Virus record (IMG/VR): IMGVR_UViG_3300010048_000003
Length of the DNA stretch: 20,000 nt
Reading direction: 5' to 3' (one strand)
Origin: an uncultured virus (IMG/VR IMGVR_UViG_3300010048_000003)
Lineage: Duplodnaviria; Heunggongvirae; Uroviricota; Caudoviricetes
Part shown: positions 13,735 through 20,000 of the stretch, piece by piece
How the letters are laid out: each line of letters opens with the position of its first letter
Position numbering within the stretch: position 1 is the stretch's first letter
Notes under the pieces: model-generated
Databases searched by the model: none
Told to the model about the DNA's origin: nothing
Seen by the model: only the letters and a program-made list of their open reading frames with translations
Position numbers and translations under genes: made by a program

Positions 13735-15984
13735 TCAATTATCAGGATCGAGAACCCATATCTCATCTACCGTGATAGGCGTGCCGAATCCGGAGATCCG
13801 GTTGCCGGATATGATGACTACATCATGATTGATCTTGATTGTCCCTAGCTTGCCCTGGATAGTCGGGAACCGGAACCGGTTGACCCTAGCATATACCTCT
13901 TCGTCGCCTACATCGTAGCAGTGTAGGGTAGCTCGTTTGATGAGGTCAGGGCGCTTGATGGTCTTGAGGATCTCCTCCACTTCCTTGCCGGTACGGGACC
14001 GTTCGTCTTCGACTATGTCTTTGTACTCGACCTTTCTGACCATCCCCATATAGATGACTTGCTTACCGAATCGCCAGATCTTGTGGGTATGATGTTGGTC
14101 TACTGTCATCGCGGCGAGCTGATCCCCGCTATGCGTCGGGAGGGGAGCGAGTCCCTTGCCCGGACCCCTGAGGAATCGCCTGACCGACGATAGGCGCTTC
14201 TCCGTCCGGTACAGCCCGAATGGGTCTTTCGCTAGCGTCCACTCCTCCATACGGGCGATAGTCTTGTCGCCTAGGCCGGGAATCGCCTTGAGTTCAATCC
14301 AGTCATCGAATCCATAGTGACCACCGAATGCCTCTATGCGTTCTGCGATTGCCGGGCCGACCTTTGGCATCTGACGCCATCCGGCGACTAGCCCGACATT
14401 CGGCACTGCTTGCCAGGTGGCGCGGGATAGCTGTAGTGATGGCGGCTTAACGTCTATGCTATGAGCTAGGGCGTCACGCATAAGACGGAACTGAGTGTCG
14501 GCTACTGTGGCTTTTGCCAGGCTCGCCGCGTAGAACTCGACTGGATAGTTTGCCTTTAGCCATGCCGTCCAGAATGCTAGCATCGAGTAGGATACTGCGT
14601 GCGCGATATTGAAGGCATAAGTGCCGGAGGTTACGAGCCGGTTCCAGATCTTCTCGGCCATCTCCCGGTCGATGTTGTGGAGTCGTTTCGCACCCTCTGC
14701 GAACTCATCGAAGTTCTGCTGGAATGCGGCTTGGCCTGCTTTCTTCGCGATGATGCGCCGGATGTGGTGGACGTTCGTCCAGGACAGATCCCCTACCTCT
14801 TTGAGACAGCGGAGGATATGTTCCTGGTAGATCATTTGTCCGTAGGTGTCCTTCGTGATCTCATCCACGATGGGGTGTAGAGGGGTAGCTCGTTTACGAC
14901 CGTGACGTACTTCGATGTACTCTGCGGTCTGTCCGGAAAACAAAGGGCCAGGACGCGATAGCGCATTGATGTCCGTGATATGCATGAAGTGATCTGGATG
15001 AACGTCTCGGTTGACAAGCCGAGTAGCTCTACCTTCAAACTGAAATACTCCCACGACGTCTCCAGAGCGGAATATCTCGATTGCTCTAGGATCAGTATCC
15101 GGTATGGCATATAGATCCTCCAGAGTTAGTCCGGTCATCCGGAGACAACGAGAGATCATCCCCATAGTCGATAGGCCCAGGAAGTCTAGCTTGAGAACGC
15201 CGACATACTCGGCGTCATACTTGTCGATTGAGAGTACACGCTCTCCGTCCTTCTCGTATACCGCGCAGACGTCGGTGAGCGGAGAGTTGGCTACCATTAG
15301 GCCGCAAGCATGGACGGACATTCCGCGTACGTCGCTCTCTAGGCGACTTGCTTTTGCGAGGTCAGGGTACTCATCAAGGACTGCCTTCGCAGCCGGGAAC
15401 ATCTCAAAAGTGTCTTCGAGCGTAGCGTCGGCTCGCGAGTCGCCACCCGACCTCTCTATGGCTAGATTCGCTACTGCTTCTTTTGCGTAGAGCGGTATGC
15501 GATAGACAGTCGAAACGTCAGCAAGACTATTCTTGGCACGGTACCGGACGAAGTTGCCTATGTGGCCGACACATTCCGCACCGTACTTGTAGGCGATGTA
15601 GTCATAGACCTTGAAGCGTTCTTCGTCAGAACAGTCGACGTCGATGTCGGGCGGGTCGTGTCGGGTAACGTCAAGGAATCGTTCAAAGATCATACCCGGA
15701 TACTTCCATGGATTGATCTCGGTGATCCTTGTCATATAGGCTACGTCGGACGCGGCGGTGCTGCCCCGGCCGGGGCCTATCGCTACATCATTGTCCTTAG
15801 CCCAGCGGATCGTGTCGGAGGTGAATAGCATGAAGTCGGCTAGGTCTTTGCCGAGGATCATATCCATCTCTCGGCGGATTCGCGCGCCGTGCCAGTCCTG
15901 TTCGACCTGCGGTAGCCTGCCTATTCGGCGATAGTTCCAGCCCTGTCGAAGCCAGTACCACAATAGATCATCAGAGTCGCTCAT
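13735..15984 (-). CDS. dnaE: DNA polymerase III alpha (DnaE-like), catalytic part lacking the PHP domain
   Basis: GPGRGS, FERFL, PDIDVD, KLDFLGL, GVFQFE, ALSRPGP, IYQE, YAFNIAHA, HhH IPGLGDKT, C-terminal OB-like region. Confidence 0.95.
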   Translation of the reverse strand: MSDSDDLLWYWLRQGWNYRRIGRLPQVEQDWHGARIRREMDMILGKDLADFMLFTSDTIRWAKDNDVAIGPGRGSTAASDVAYMTRITEINPWKYPGMIFERFLDVTRHDPPDIDVDCSDEERFKVYDYIAYKYGAECVGHIGNFVRYRAKNSLADVSTVYRIPLYAKEAVANLAIERSGGDSRADATLEDTFEMFPAAKAVLDEYPDLAKASRLESDVRGMSVHACGLMVANSPLTDVCAVYEKDGERVLSIDKYDAEYVGVLKLDFLGLSTMGMISRCLRMTGLTLEDLYAIPDTDPRAIEIFRSGDVVGVFQFEGRATRLVNRDVHPDHFMHITDINALSRPGPLFSGQTAEYIEVRHGRKRATPLHPIVDEITKDTYGQMIYQEHILRCLKEVGDLSWTNVHHIRRIIAKKAGQAAFQQNFDEFAEGAKRLHNIDREMAEKIWNRLVTSGTYAFNIAHAVSYSMLAFWTAWLKANYPVEFYAASLAKATVADTQFRLMRDALAHSIDVKPPSLQLSRATWQAVPNVGLVAGWRQMPKVGPAIAERIEAFGGHYGFDDWIELKAIPGLGDKTIARMEEWTLAKDPFGLYRTEKRLSSVRRFLRGPGKGLAPLPTHSGDQLAAMTVDQHHTHKIWRFGKQVIYMGMVRKVEYKDIVEDERSRTGKEVEEILKTIKRPDLIKRATLHCYDVGDEEVYARVNRFRFPTIQGKLGTIKINHDVVIISGNRISGFGTPITVDEIWVLDPDN

Positions 15985-16160
15985 ATAATTTCCCAGCTTC
16001 CATGGAATGCGTTAAAGAACCAGTCATTCCGGCCGTATAGGGAAAGCTCATTGAAAAGAAATTCATGATCCATCTCGTCACTGTAGCCGGTATCGATGAT
16101 GTAGAAACCGCATATCGCACAGAGGCCGACGACATGACTGATGTAGATGTCCTGCTTCAC
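15981..16160 (-). CDS. Small hypothetical protein (59-60 aa, CxxC) between the two dnaE halves
   Basis: GTG at 16160 (or ATG at 16163) overlaps the PHP stop, with SD GGGAG; its TGA overlaps the dnaE ATG (ATGA); sequence VKQDIYISHVVGLCAICG...GSWEII. Confidence 0.6.
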   Translation of the reverse strand: MKQDIYISHVVGLCAICGFYIIDTGYSDEMDHEFLFNELSLYGRNDWFFNAFHGSWEII

Positions 16161-17104
16161 CATGGCTCCCAGTCGGAGTCTTTGATTGGGTAGGTAAGTC
16201 GTTCTGCCTTTGGCAGGGTTACCGTACATTGCTCGGCTATGCGCTCAGTATTGAGGATAGCCTCCCATGCTGCGGCGCGGGATAGGCCGGTCTTCATCAG
16301 GCGTTCGCCGAGTTGCTTGTCGGACTCGGGGAACGTCATAGGGACGTCATAGTTCCAGGCGCGTAGTGCGTCGTCTATGGATTGGTTCTTTCGGTGTACT
16401 GCGTGGAGTATAGCCTGCATCTCAGAATCTGCTGGTCTGGGGTAGTGGACATCACACGTTGCGACAAGTGGAACTCCAGTCTCCCGGCTGAGACGTTCGT
16501 AAGCTGGATTGATGCGGCAGGTCTTTTCAAGCTCGTAGAAGGGCTGGACTTCGAGGTAGTAATTGGCCCCAAATAGAGAGGCAAAACGGCGGATGACGCG
16601 TCGTGCGTCATCCCATCCATAACCGTCTCTAGACGTGGGATCGGCGATCCCCTTGCCTCCGACAAGAGCGCATGCGAGCATGCTACCAGTGCATCCTGAA
16701 AGTACGACAAGATTCTCGTGATTGTCGACCAGATTCTGTCCAGAAACTGTCGGATGGTAGTGATGATCTCGCCAAGACTGTGTGACAAGGCGGTTGAGGT
16801 TTCGGTATCCATTTGCGTTCTCCGCGAGGATCGTGAGGTGATACTTCCATTGGCTACGGTTTTCGCCTACCGGCCCGCAGTACGCCTCTAGCCCAAATAT
16901 CGGCTTCAGCCCTAGCTTCAGGGCGGCCTGCTCGAACTGGAAGTGACTAGACGTACCGCCATGCTCTGTAAGGGCTTGCGCGGTATAGCCTAGCTCTACA
17001 GCCCGCGCTACGTGGATAGCTGGTAGCTTGTGGCCATCACCGTGACTGAAGGTCGAATGGTGTAAGTGGTGAAGTGATACGTAGCGTATCTTGTTCTTCA
17101 CCAT
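16157..17104 (-). CDS. dnaE: DnaE N-terminal PHP domain encoded as a separate gene
   Basis: LHHLHHSTFSHGDG, ALTEHG, GLEAY, YHLTILA, VLSGC, YYLEVQ, ATCDVHY; strong SD GGAGGTGATC. Confidence 0.93.
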   Translation of the reverse strand: MVKNKIRYVSLHHLHHSTFSHGDGHKLPAIHVARAVELGYTAQALTEHGGTSSHFQFEQAALKLGLKPIFGLEAYCGPVGENRSQWKYHLTILAENANGYRNLNRLVTQSWRDHHYHPTVSGQNLVDNHENLVVLSGCTGSMLACALVGGKGIADPTSRDGYGWDDARRVIRRFASLFGANYYLEVQPFYELEKTCRINPAYERLSRETGVPLVATCDVHYPRPADSEMQAILHAVHRKNQSIDDALRAWNYDVPMTFPESDKQLGERLMKTGLSRAAAWEAILNTERIAEQCTVTLPKAERLTYPIKDSDWEPW

Positions 17105-18139: not shown

Positions 18140-18470
18140 GATCCTTTCCTTTCTGTAGGATTTGTTGGAGCGTCCATGTCCCCTTGAGTTCGATGGTTTG
18201 CGGGATTTCGCAGACACGGCACCTCACAAGTACGATAGTCACTGCCGGAGTACGGAGCTGAGGGTGATTGCTGAAGACGGGGTGCCAGATGTCGAGCGTT
18301 TCCCACTTGTGTACGTGAGAGTTTGGCGTATCGGCATCGATCGGGGCGAATGGGCCGGTAGTAGGCTCTGGCGCGGGGTTGGGTTTCTTGTCGTGCGGGC
18401 TATCGCCAAAGTCTTGTCCAGGTGGCATGTAGTTTTGCTCCATTTCTTCGTGGCTAGTCCAGTCAGACAT
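18129..18470 (-). CDS. Hypothetical protein with possible Zn site (HxH...CxxC)
   Basis: 113 aa; HVHKW and RCRVCE; overlaps both neighbours. Confidence 0.65.
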   Translation of the reverse strand: MSDWTSHEEMEQNYMPPGQDFGDSPHDKKPNPAPEPTTGPFAPIDADTPNSHVHKWETLDIWHPVFSNHPQLRTPAVTIVLVRCRVCEIPQTIELKGTWTLQQILQKGKDHEQ

Positions 18471-19356
18471 TCGGAGACTTCCGAGCTGCGTTATGCTGGA
18501 GGGGTTCGAGCGGGTTGATGTCGGTCCAGGTGTCCGGGGGATCTCCGGCTGCCGAGTGTGCGTTCACACGGTCGCGGATGACGCACCACCGGTCGATCGG
18601 GGAGTTGAAGCCGCAGCTGCCGGTCTGGTAGCAGATCGGCTTGAATAGTTTCGCGATAGCCGCCTGCTGCCATCTTTCCTCGGGCGGCCCATAGTTGAGG
18701 ATGGCCCGGATCATTTCGGCCCAGACCAACTTCCATTCGGACTGAGCCTGGGAGCAGAGCCGGTTCCCTGACTGGGCTACTAGGTTCCGGAGGTCGGTGT
18801 GGTAGTGGACTCTTGTCGTGATGTTCGTCGGGAGTAGGCCGCGCGCATCTTCGGCGGGCATCCCGTCATTCACGAGCTGGTTGTACGCTCGGCCTACGGT
18901 AGCGACGGTATCATTCCAGATGACGCGCCAGGGATGGTCGTCGGCCTTTCCCTCCAGGCTCGGCGGCTCGGCTACTTCCCAGGCAGCGTTTTCCTTGACC
19001 GCGAAGCGCATGGACTCCTGAACGAACACGGCTGTACGCTGCCGGACAAGCTGGTGCGTAAAGGCCCGCGTCACGCCGTCGATGAAGAAGTGGAGATTGA
19101 TGAACTCCAGCGGCGCAGAAATCTTGCTCTTCTTGAAGCCGTCGAGCCATTCGAGTGCCTGATCACGGGAGATTGCATCGGCATCCTCGTATACGCCTCC
19201 CCGGTATAGTTCGCTCGCGGCCGACATAACCCGGAGCGGGTTCGCGGTCATGCTGATAAGCACGACGCTCGGGCGTACCGGCTCACCGAAACTTGAGAGC
19301 GGTTCGGCCGTGTACATCGCCTCGTCCGCATAACGTCTGATTTCTTTCCCGGTCAT
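18463..19356 (-). CDS. thyX: Flavin-dependent thymidylate synthase ThyX (RQR variant)
   Basis: PLEF, VTRAFTHQLVRQR-x7-SMR, EDARGLLP, RLCSQAQSEW. Confidence 0.9.
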   Translation of the reverse strand: MTGKEIRRYADEAMYTAEPLSSFGEPVRPSVVLISMTANPLRVMSAASELYRGGVYEDADAISRDQALEWLDGFKKSKISAPLEFINLHFFIDGVTRAFTHQLVRQRTAVFVQESMRFAVKENAAWEVAEPPSLEGKADDHPWRVIWNDTVATVGRAYNQLVNDGMPAEDARGLLPTNITTRVHYHTDLRNLVAQSGNRLCSQAQSEWKLVWAEMIRAILNYGPPEERWQQAAIAKLFKPICYQTGSCGFNSPIDRWCVIRDRVNAHSAAGDPPDTWTDINPLEPLQHNAARKSPNV

Positions 19357-19785
19357 TTCTGTGCCTTCCTTCTTGCCTCGGACCAGGGCTTTCCTTTGAG
19401 TGCCGCTGATATCTTAGCTCTTGTTTCGGTCGAAATTTCTTGTCCGTAATGAGCATCAGACATATGTTGACGGTATTCTGGATCATTCCAGTTGTTTGTT
19501 GTGATCGCCTTCATTCTTTCAGATCTGGCTTCTGATGAGTTCCCTCCCTTCTGGTTATGGCCGTCATACTGCATATGACATCGCCTACATAGCGGTACGA
19601 AGTCGGCCCATGGATCGTCGCCGGATTCGCCGTGTATGTGTGCCCAGTCCTTGGCTTTCCTATCGCATTTGGCACATAGATACTCATTAGCTTTTCCGCG
19701 ATTCTTTACGCATTGCATTCGTTGGTAATGTCCTAGATTCCTTTCGGCTGGCTTGTAGTTCGTATGGGCTTTGGTCTTAGCCATT
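19324..19785 (-). mobile_element. Inferred homing-endonuclease cassette (HNH gene + recoded thyX 5' end) inserted in thyX
   Basis: Peptide-level duplication MT-KEIRRWAD / MTGKEIRRYAD on either side of the HNH gene; removing this interval restores a contiguous thyX. Confidence 0.7.
19353..19784 (-). CDS. HNH homing endonuclease with NUMOD3-like C-terminal DNA-binding motifs
   Basis: CAKC...DWAHIHG...VPLCRRCHMQYD; ISTETRAKISAALKGKPWSEARR; markedly lower GC than thyX. Confidence 0.85.
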   Translation of the reverse strand: MAKTKAHTNYKPAERNLGHYQRMQCVKNRGKANEYLCAKCDRKAKDWAHIHGESGDDPWADFVPLCRRCHMQYDGHNQKGGNSSEARSERMKAITTNNWNDPEYRQHMSDAHYGQEISTETRAKISAALKGKPWSEARRKAQK

Positions 19786-19815
19786 GTCAGCCCACCGGCG
19801 GATTTCCTTGGTCAT
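19777..19815 (-). pseudogene. 12-aa mini-ORF, remnant of the original thyX 5' end
   Basis: ATG ACC AAG GAA ATC CGC CGG TGG GCT GAC AAT GGC TAA = MTKEIRRWADNG; ATGA-coupled to the upstream gene; its last codons contain the HNH ATG. Confidence 0.8.
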
Positions 19816-20000
19816 CCTTCTACCGTCCTGTCCTCGTAATGGCGTCGCATAGGCAATGGCAATTCTACCGCCATCTCCTCAACTGGGTGGTCGGAGTGGT
19901 GCTGGAGGATGAATGCGTTCGGCATGAATTCCTTGACGGCGTCTATACATTCCGAGCATAGCTCGATAGGCTGGAACTCGTCATCCCCGACGTACTCGCC
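19812..20000 (-). CDS. 3' end of hypothetical protein (partial, CxxC)
   Basis: Open frame from the window edge, GEYVGDDEFQPIELCSECIDAVKEF...DRTVEG, to TGA at 19814-19812. Confidence 0.7.
   Translation of the reverse strand, partial: GEYVGDDEFQPIELCSECIDAVKEFMPNAFILQHHSDHPVEEMAVELPLPMRRHYEDRTVEG

Follow-up and report, generated by a model that had tools for sequence, protein, structure and literature searches.

We show here that the thyX gene of an uncultured tailed phage is interrupted after codon 10 by 462 nt, which carry an HNH-like nuclease gene and end in a second, diverged thyX start. Closely related phages have the uninterrupted gene, and nuclease genes flanked by duplicated host gene ends recur in the nuclease family. 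The segment is probably a mobile homing element that uses neither intron nor intein and works by nuclease-driven copying.

The interrupted thyX locus and its empty allele

The window, i.e., the whole stretch of 20,000 nt analysed here, is the first half of a 41.7-kb contig of a tailed phage, and the runs with matching contigs are soil metagenomes; no RNA data set was listed among them, from which nothing follows on expression. The minus strand of the window holds a replication module with thyX, small genes and a dnaE in two parts, a PHP gene and a polymerase gene. The top cultured matches of thyX are Mycobacterium phages (41%) and the cultured matches of the nuclease are Gordonia and Mycobacterium phages, hence the phage host is likely actinobacterial.

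All features of the locus lie on the minus strand. The upstream gene (19812..20000, its 5' end outside the window) overlaps with its stop the start of a mini-ORF (ATGA). This mini-ORF (19777..19815, MTKEIRRWADNG and stop) consists of the orphaned original thyX codons 1-10 (MTKEIRRWAD, 19786..19815), two element-encoded codons and the stop, and it is preceded by the Shine-Dalgarno-like site of the original thyX start (19822..19829; anti-SD duplex -8.1 kcal/mol, given here with no shuffle baseline). The inserted element spans 19324..19785, its edges being uncertain by 3 nt (GAC on either side), and its GC content is 47.8% vs 60.9% in thyX. Most of it is the nuclease gene (19353..19784, 143 aa), the start of which overlaps the mini-ORF by 8 nt out of frame. 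The gene product combines a putative zinc-finger core of the type CxxC...CxxCH (residues ~17-78) with a NUMOD3-type helical tail. The stop codon of the nuclease gene is overlapped by the ATG (again ATGA) of the element-borne replacement start of 11 codons (MTGKEIRRYAD, 19324..19356), which leads into a complete thyX of 297 aa (18463..19356; starting MTGKEIRRYADEAMY), a flavin-dependent thymidylate synthase by its Pfam Thy1 match (E 4.5e-29). A Shine-Dalgarno-like AGGAAGG for this new start (19364..19370) lies within the nuclease coding sequence, 7 nt 5' of the ATG, while the corresponding site of the nuclease gene is formed by the host's own Arg-Trp codons. The duplexes before mini-ORF, nuclease and thyX amount to -8.1, -6.5 and -7.9 kcal/mol, respectively, as raw energies with no control. 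No sigma-70-type promoter was found within 19200-20000. The two starts, KEIRRWAD and KEIRRYAD, are identical in 7/8 amino acids and 17/24 nt (71%), and when the 644 nt upstream were base-shuffled 300 times, a 7/8 peptide match never arose (best 6, once). The preliminary description of this DNA had given coordinates, peptides and codons for the mini-ORF (19815-19777) and the start of thyX (19356), all of which are as it stated.

It had also claimed that deletion of the 462 nt would yield a thyX product beginning MTKEIRRWAD-EAMYTAEPL, and that a nuclease gene had invaded thyX and rebuilt its start. A real protein begins exactly so. P0013, encoded on a 63.8-kb contig, starts with MTKEIRRWADEAMYTAEPL (MTKEIRRWADEAMY), falls into one 90% cluster with the ThyX of the window and is 98% identical to it overall; the window ThyX is whole and colinear with P0013 except for one Gly. 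The empty allele is also found as DNA, since contigs in two of the four soil runs skip the interval. Contigs of the DNA runs X2 and X3 join 19323 to 19786, and a second X3 contig joins 19323 to 19787 with one other letter and has 44 differences over 18478-19323. The occupied allele is present without any difference in X1 and X2, either of which is possibly the window's own source. Because its loose end matches the HNH-less phage locus L048, the first kind of joint in X2 and X3 is assigned to an L048-like phage, and an X3 contig is the likely match to P0013. A metagenome scan with P0013 returned 15 loci, the best at 77%; the contig of P0013 itself was not among them. The element is patchily present, with occupied and empty alleles among close relatives, a pattern by which homing endonucleases are recognised.

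Which of the two starts is the old one can be read from L048. There, a homologous upstream gene (60% identity) is directly coupled to thyX by an ATGA overlap, as the preliminary description had predicted for relatives that lack the nuclease, and the homologues of the upstream gene in L001-L004 likewise overlap the thyX start. The first 30 nt of L048 thyX match the mini-ORF copy at 27/30 and the replacement at 21/30 positions (the extra Gly codon set aside), while the next 30 nt match the body of the window thyX at 28/30. Judged from these identities, the upstream copy is the original one, and it was the element that brought the downstream 33 nt. The opposite outcome, a nuclease-free relative starting thyX with the downstream codons, was not seen in L048.

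The insertion lies inside the first conserved motif of thyX (R-W/Y-A-D|E-A-M), in which D11 and M14 are invariant across 11 aligned ThyX-subfamily sequences. The motif is present in 71 of 80 viral thyX loci, some of them redundant (W 47, Y 17, F 7), and among 120 proteins its variable residue is W in 70, Y in 36 and F in 7, with none in the remaining 7. None of the 80 viral loci has a duplicated thyX start, and in two (L179, L192) a family nuclease lies directly before thyX, again with no duplicate.

It had further been proposed that the downstream copy was recoded such that the element destroys its own target. This view did not hold as an excess of divergence. Between the copies, 4/7 degenerate codons differ and Trp, for which no silent change is possible, became Tyr. 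However, the degenerate codons that differ between the window thyX and six relatives make up 40-54% (P 0.3-0.6), therefore the codon divergence is unremarkable, and Tyr is natural at this position in the 36 of 120 proteins mentioned above. Similarly, the GC counts put forward for the nuclease gene (24/60) and thyX (39/60) are correct, and the replacement is indeed lower in GC (16/33) than the upstream copy (18/30), but this difference is not significant (Fisher P 0.45; binomial test vs thyX body P 0.09), so that its AT-richness was dropped as an argument. The codon usage of the replacement is mildly nuclease-like, with 11 of 279 thyX windows scoring as high. A captured foreign thyX allele would explain the data as well as adaptive recoding, and both could hold if it is the resistant alleles that persist. 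The alignment with P0013 revealed no bypass-type insert in the window thyX.

The nuclease family and recurrence of the layout

The assignment of the nuclease as HNH-type rests on motif, family and weak fold matches and should be read as putative. In Pfam, NUMOD3 is just above the cut-off (E 3e-4) and HNH is below it (14.1 bits vs 21.4; E 0.052), and a PHROG homing endonuclease match (E 1e-5) falls on the tail. A profile search recovered a family of 2,823 cluster representatives. Its best 150 members all have G30, W47, C66, H70 and D74, and nearly all have C37, C40, C69 and H51 (H51 in 143/150); at C37, C40, H51, C66, C69, H70 and D74 the window protein has the family consensus. The structure model (pLDDT 86.7) has strands at 46-49 and 62-65 and a helix at 67-74, which form a putative strand-strand-helix zinc-finger core, and a helical tail. 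Its top fold match is the weakly similar HNH protein of GVE2 (Z 4.3, rmsd 3.9, 62 aligned residues), and no fold match reached Z 5. Five of the six top Foldseek rows are HNH-type, all with E>0.2, and a PDB sequence search with a 96-sequence profile gave no match at E<=0.001.

The window protein has R22 where 144/150 relatives carry His. In its subgroup, this near-invariant His of the first helix is lost and a His occupies the presumed canonical HNH position instead: four of the six relatives without the first His, including P0001, P0002 and P0017, have a His at 49, while H49 occurs in 20/150 members overall. By the usual HNH spacing, H49 would be the general-base position. The residue before it is Ala or Ser and not Asp or His. 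The catalytic residue has possibly moved from position 22 to 49 in this subgroup, and since the carriers are close kin, the shift counts as one event.

The duplication of a gene end across the nuclease gene is not confined to thyX. After removal of identical copies and of L078, 50 loci were kept, one of which has no scorable flank. At least 7/8 matching residues across the nuclease gene were found in 4/49 other distinct family loci vs 2/400 mismatched pairs, of which one pair is two elements at the same gene and one is chance. The four are L063 (cas4-like exonuclease), L105 (PHP/dnaE; the same sequence as L048) and L113 and L116 (cytosine methyltransferase); the other 45 of the 49 have no duplicate at this threshold. 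A shorter case is L001, in which MRYVSL is fused to the nuclease. Starts of the thyX type are also found on nucleases themselves. Of the nucleases found, P0017 is most similar to that of the window (59% over 98 aa); its N-terminus is MAEEDKSKLPAR and resembles that of L003 thyX, while the N-terminus of P0158 reads ...RVAKYADE. These are the two thyX-type starts at >=7/8 among 150 family proteins, compared to none in controls (C-termini, shuffles). A 6/8 likeness of P0030 to the thyX start was dropped, as it is within the control range. P0017 has no locus in the viral contigs, and the close relatives P0002 and L063 (40-44%) sit at cas4, not at thyX. Searching IMG/VR with the HNH query alone gave 38 loci, mostly matched via the tail, none of them beside thyX.

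Among cultured phages we examined five of six with the nuclease and five further relatives, leaving out HubbaBubba and ~65 other records. The start of cas4 is duplicated in the Gordonia phages Turuncu and GTE5, and in a third Gordonia phage, Skysand, the duplicate accompanies an internally deleted nuclease. Wojtek and Leopard have no duplicate, and Flapper, Patio, Fury and Emianna have a single cas4 start and no nuclease. A C-terminal form exists in Gordonia phage Xenia2 (L201:1040-1530), where cas4 ends with NSKTTVLLKKKTGVS and stop and the nuclease ORF behind it with NSKTTVLLKRKTGVS and stop. Which cas4 copy is older is mixed: compared with an empty relative, the upstream copy matches at 33/36 vs 30/36 positions for the other copy in Skysand, 32 vs 30 in GTE5 and 29 vs 30 in Turuncu. 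Taken at the level of sequence, the end-duplicating layout recurs across the nuclease family at dnaE, cas4 and methyltransferase genes.

Proposed homing without splicing, its alternatives and known systems

We envisage that the element, which unites the nuclease gene with a ribosome-binding site and thyX codons 1-10 in diverged form, would act as follows. Through the overlapping stop and start codons, translation is predicted to run from the upstream gene via the mini-ORF and the nuclease to thyX, so that a whole ThyX would be made without splicing. In a mixed infection, the nuclease would nick or cut near codons 6-12 of the empty allele. The element would then be copied during repair from the occupied genome, with homology arms provided by the upstream gene and by the body of thyX. 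The occupied genome should escape cutting, as its site is split by the insertion and 7/24 nt of the replacement half are changed. Most simply, the replacement would be a captured foreign thyX allele, kept because it is resistant to cutting.

Against homing speak R22, the sub-threshold Pfam HNH match and weak fold matches, the background level of codon divergence, and the many family loci (45/49) lacking a duplicate, as do L179 and L192 directly before thyX. Further counterpoints are the location of the close relatives P0002 and L063 at cas4 and the case of MobA (see below), whose diverged copy by itself did not stop nicking, while the window thyX has no bypass-type insert. The anatomy and its origin could indeed be the same with a nuclease that is inactive or cuts elsewhere, like the free-standing Seg-type enzymes of T4; the duplicate would then be a by-product of recombination with a relative that has the nuclease before thyX, and play no role in self-protection. 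Such a course is unlikely in our view, but several observations would suit it. The near-invariant His is replaced, the copies diverge no more than background, the nucleases directly before thyX in L179 and L192 could have been donors, and the cuts of free-standing T4 enzymes lie hundreds to thousands of bp away (PMC2988022). However, that His is equally missing from the three closest relatives examined, which carry one at the presumed canonical HNH position, and their occurrence at two different target genes points to a mobile subgroup. Moreover, the 5' junction lies inside coding sequence and has no similarity to the nuclease gene, and fusions recur at the same thyX motif. Homing, with the occupied genome presumably spared by the split site and the diverged start, stays the preferred and probable reading.

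A degenerate self-splicing intron joining codon 10 to codon 11, with the downstream copy as a fallback or a coincidence, would account for the restored frame and natural protein after removal of the interval, and an alternative cut even offers a U at the exon end and a G at the intron end. Yet we regard it as very unlikely, in line with the preliminary description, which called the invader splicing-free: by sequence there appears to be neither room nor signal for an intron. The nuclease ORF fills 432 of the 462 nt and leaves 30 outside, no Rfam intron matches at E<=10, and the folding z of -1.05 is equalled by 12/100 shuffles. Nor would the 3' end of an intron have to carry a start codon, a ribosome site and eight matching codons. 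The matching GAC codons of the two junctions, together with the short candidate bypass inserts that accompany related elements (see below), bring to mind a long translational bypass with take-off at the GAC of codon 10 and landing 462 nt further on. This is highly improbable, because AAT, which is not TTA and not a stop codon, follows the GAC at which take-off would occur, known gaps measure 50 nt in T4 and 27-55 nt in yeast mitochondria (bioRxiv 10.1101/2022.08.31.505936), and thyX has its own start and ribosome site. Finally, the window is an uncultured metagenomic contig from samples with several related phages, hence a chimera assembled from two strains might be considered. We see next to no chance for it, as single contigs in X1 and X2, which stem from different studies, span both junctions with 0 differences and finished genomes of cultured phages have the same layout.

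Entry into genes without intron or intein, and the mobility of such elements, have precedents, and the lack of such precedent implied by the preliminary description was too strong. MobA, a phage HNH gene without intron or intein, occurs in the topoisomerase genes named 39 and 60 of T4-type phages. Besides a start of its own it brings HomR, which copies the host segment containing the nick site at 67-81% DNA identity; polymorphisms in HomR alone are reported not to block nicking, whereas the bypass insert is reported to do so (bioRxiv 10.1101/2022.08.31.505936, Manning and Atkins). By its description, MobA shares with the thyX element the HNH gene within an essential gene, the element-encoded start and the diverged host copy (71% here), and in both the nuclease ORF and the element-encoded tail of the upstream frame overlap in different frames (by 1-20 nt in MobA and 8 nt here). 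In contrast, MobA is ~1.1 kb long, sits mid-gene, deletes 55-75 nt and leaves a two-chain enzyme with ~44-aa extensions, its protection comes from a 50-nt bypass cassette, and its nuclease has 269-279 aa. The thyX element, with a nuclease of 143 aa, measures 462 nt, lies at codon 10 and preserves the old start. Its target gene still encodes one whole protein, and a bypass insert is absent. Fungal mitochondrial mORF hybrids, described for atp6 of Allomyces macrogynus and atp6, atp9, cox2 and nad3 of Glomus, likewise carry a foreign gene end, leave a native relic closer to relatives and need no splicing (PMC3630166). They replace C-termini with LAGLIDADG or GIY-YIG enzymes in organelle genomes (PMC3630166), whereas the thyX element is N-terminal, HNH-like and from a phage and brings a new ribosome site and translational coupling. 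At yeast FBA1, WHO elements also home without splicing by replacing a gene end, and allele-specific cleavage was shown for them; unlike the thyX element, they act at the 3' end of a nuclear gene with an intein-like, HO-related enzyme and form clusters of repeated insertions (PMC7282813). T4 Seg/Mob enzymes and Aeh1 mobE in nrdA are intronless phage HNH/GIY-YIG homing systems at DNA-metabolism genes as well, but are either intergenic with distant cuts or split a gene into two chains (PMC2988022). The accessible part of that source describes no replacement start for T4-type free-standing or gene-splitting enzymes, and the corresponding parts of PMC10448857 and PMC12724721 contain no start-replacing layout. 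In the literature, mostly from non-subscription sources, we found no phage element that replaces the first codons of a gene; the MobA supplements may list more. In its way of working, the thyX element resembles mORF, WHO and MobA elements, yet it belongs to none of these groups. Carrying a copy of host gene sequence without splicing is known from all three, and what appears to be new is the replacement of a start at the first codons of a phage gene.

Short inserts beside related elements and wider meaning

Several relatives combine the element with a short insert that breaks the frame of the target gene. All three cas4 alleles with the element (Turuncu, GTE5 and Skysand, i.e., L198, L199 and L203) have a 7-nt insert, CCG AGA TCCG, with matched Pro codons around AGA, and all four alleles without the element (Flapper, Patio, Fury, Emianna) lack it (Fisher P 0.03, though from related genomes). 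In Turuncu and GTE5, cas4 is annotated from an internal start. At PHP/dnaE, an insert of 2-7 nt at TTA, TAG or TGA is found in 5/8 loci with a nuclease directly upstream vs 2/14 without, one of the latter being the window itself (CAC TTA CAC at ~17073-17065). The inserts resemble the UUA bypass sites that are supported for the terminase of phage Hau3 (PMC10732093) and, in their presumed role, the cassette of MobA. They are candidate ribosome-bypass sites, and single metagenomic frameshifts among them could be errors.

It is possible, if tentative, that these cases belong to one widespread and so far undescribed family of end-replacing HNH homing elements of ~450 nt in soil and actinobacterial phages, equipped with miniature bypass inserts and targeting the first or last codons of replication genes, namely thyX, dnaE, cas4-like exonuclease and cytosine methyltransferase genes. 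If true, self-protection would come from the diverged replacement end alone, as in thyX, or from the replacement plus a hopped insert of 2-7 nt, and the inserts after a rare or stop codon would represent a minimal and repeatedly arising version of the T4 gene 60 bypass. For a selfish nuclease gene, elements of this type would open a compact path into essential phage genes that requires no intron, no intein and no split enzyme, and they would allow gene starts to be swapped between phages. The near-identical empty allele fixes the junction and supplies the exact substrate pair for a cutting assay. Phages of Gordonia terrae 3612 occur with (Skysand, Turuncu) and without the element (Patio, Flapper), hence homing and self-protection are testable in crosses. 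Annotation overlooks elements of this kind, as stubs remain uncalled and insert-bearing genes are called from internal starts.

Further loci deserve mention. In Gordonia phage Wojtek (L197:1130-1560) an unannotated family nuclease gene precedes dnaE. Both there and in Mycobacterium phage Leopard (L200:1610-1650), what looks like the dnaE start runs into an in-frame stop that belongs to a 4-5-nt insert, with the annotation starting downstream. More frame-breaking inserts after element-associated starts are seen at L063:1905-1960, L217:1175-1210, L224:1320-1340 and L116:1658-1700, three of which begin with TTA; they could represent bypass sites or errors of assembly. In a relative (L007:58-2667), the dnaE ORF contains an in-frame insertion that looks like an intein and includes an HNH-like stretch.

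The dnaE halves of the window lie at 16157-17104 (PHP) and 13735-15984 (polymerase), with an 82-codon ORF between them. At the start of the PHP gene (dnaE-N; 17104-17055, minus strand), the window reads SLHH-LH-HSTF where most relatives read SLHHHSTF, and the same insert is present in L207 and L208. A 6-nt hop between the matched His codons over TTA would restore HxH, which makes this a candidate UUA bypass. Over 17162-17057, the PHP gene carries a strong ribosome site, GGAGGTGA, and a K-N-K-I extension that resembles those of element-borne starts, but no nuclease accompanies it, and a close relative in run X3 differs just over this stretch. Possibly, it is the scar of a lost element. The PHP gene is preceded by a short hydrophobic ORF of ~44 codons (17229-17098, minus strand), which has a counterpart in L048 and likely encodes one membrane helix.
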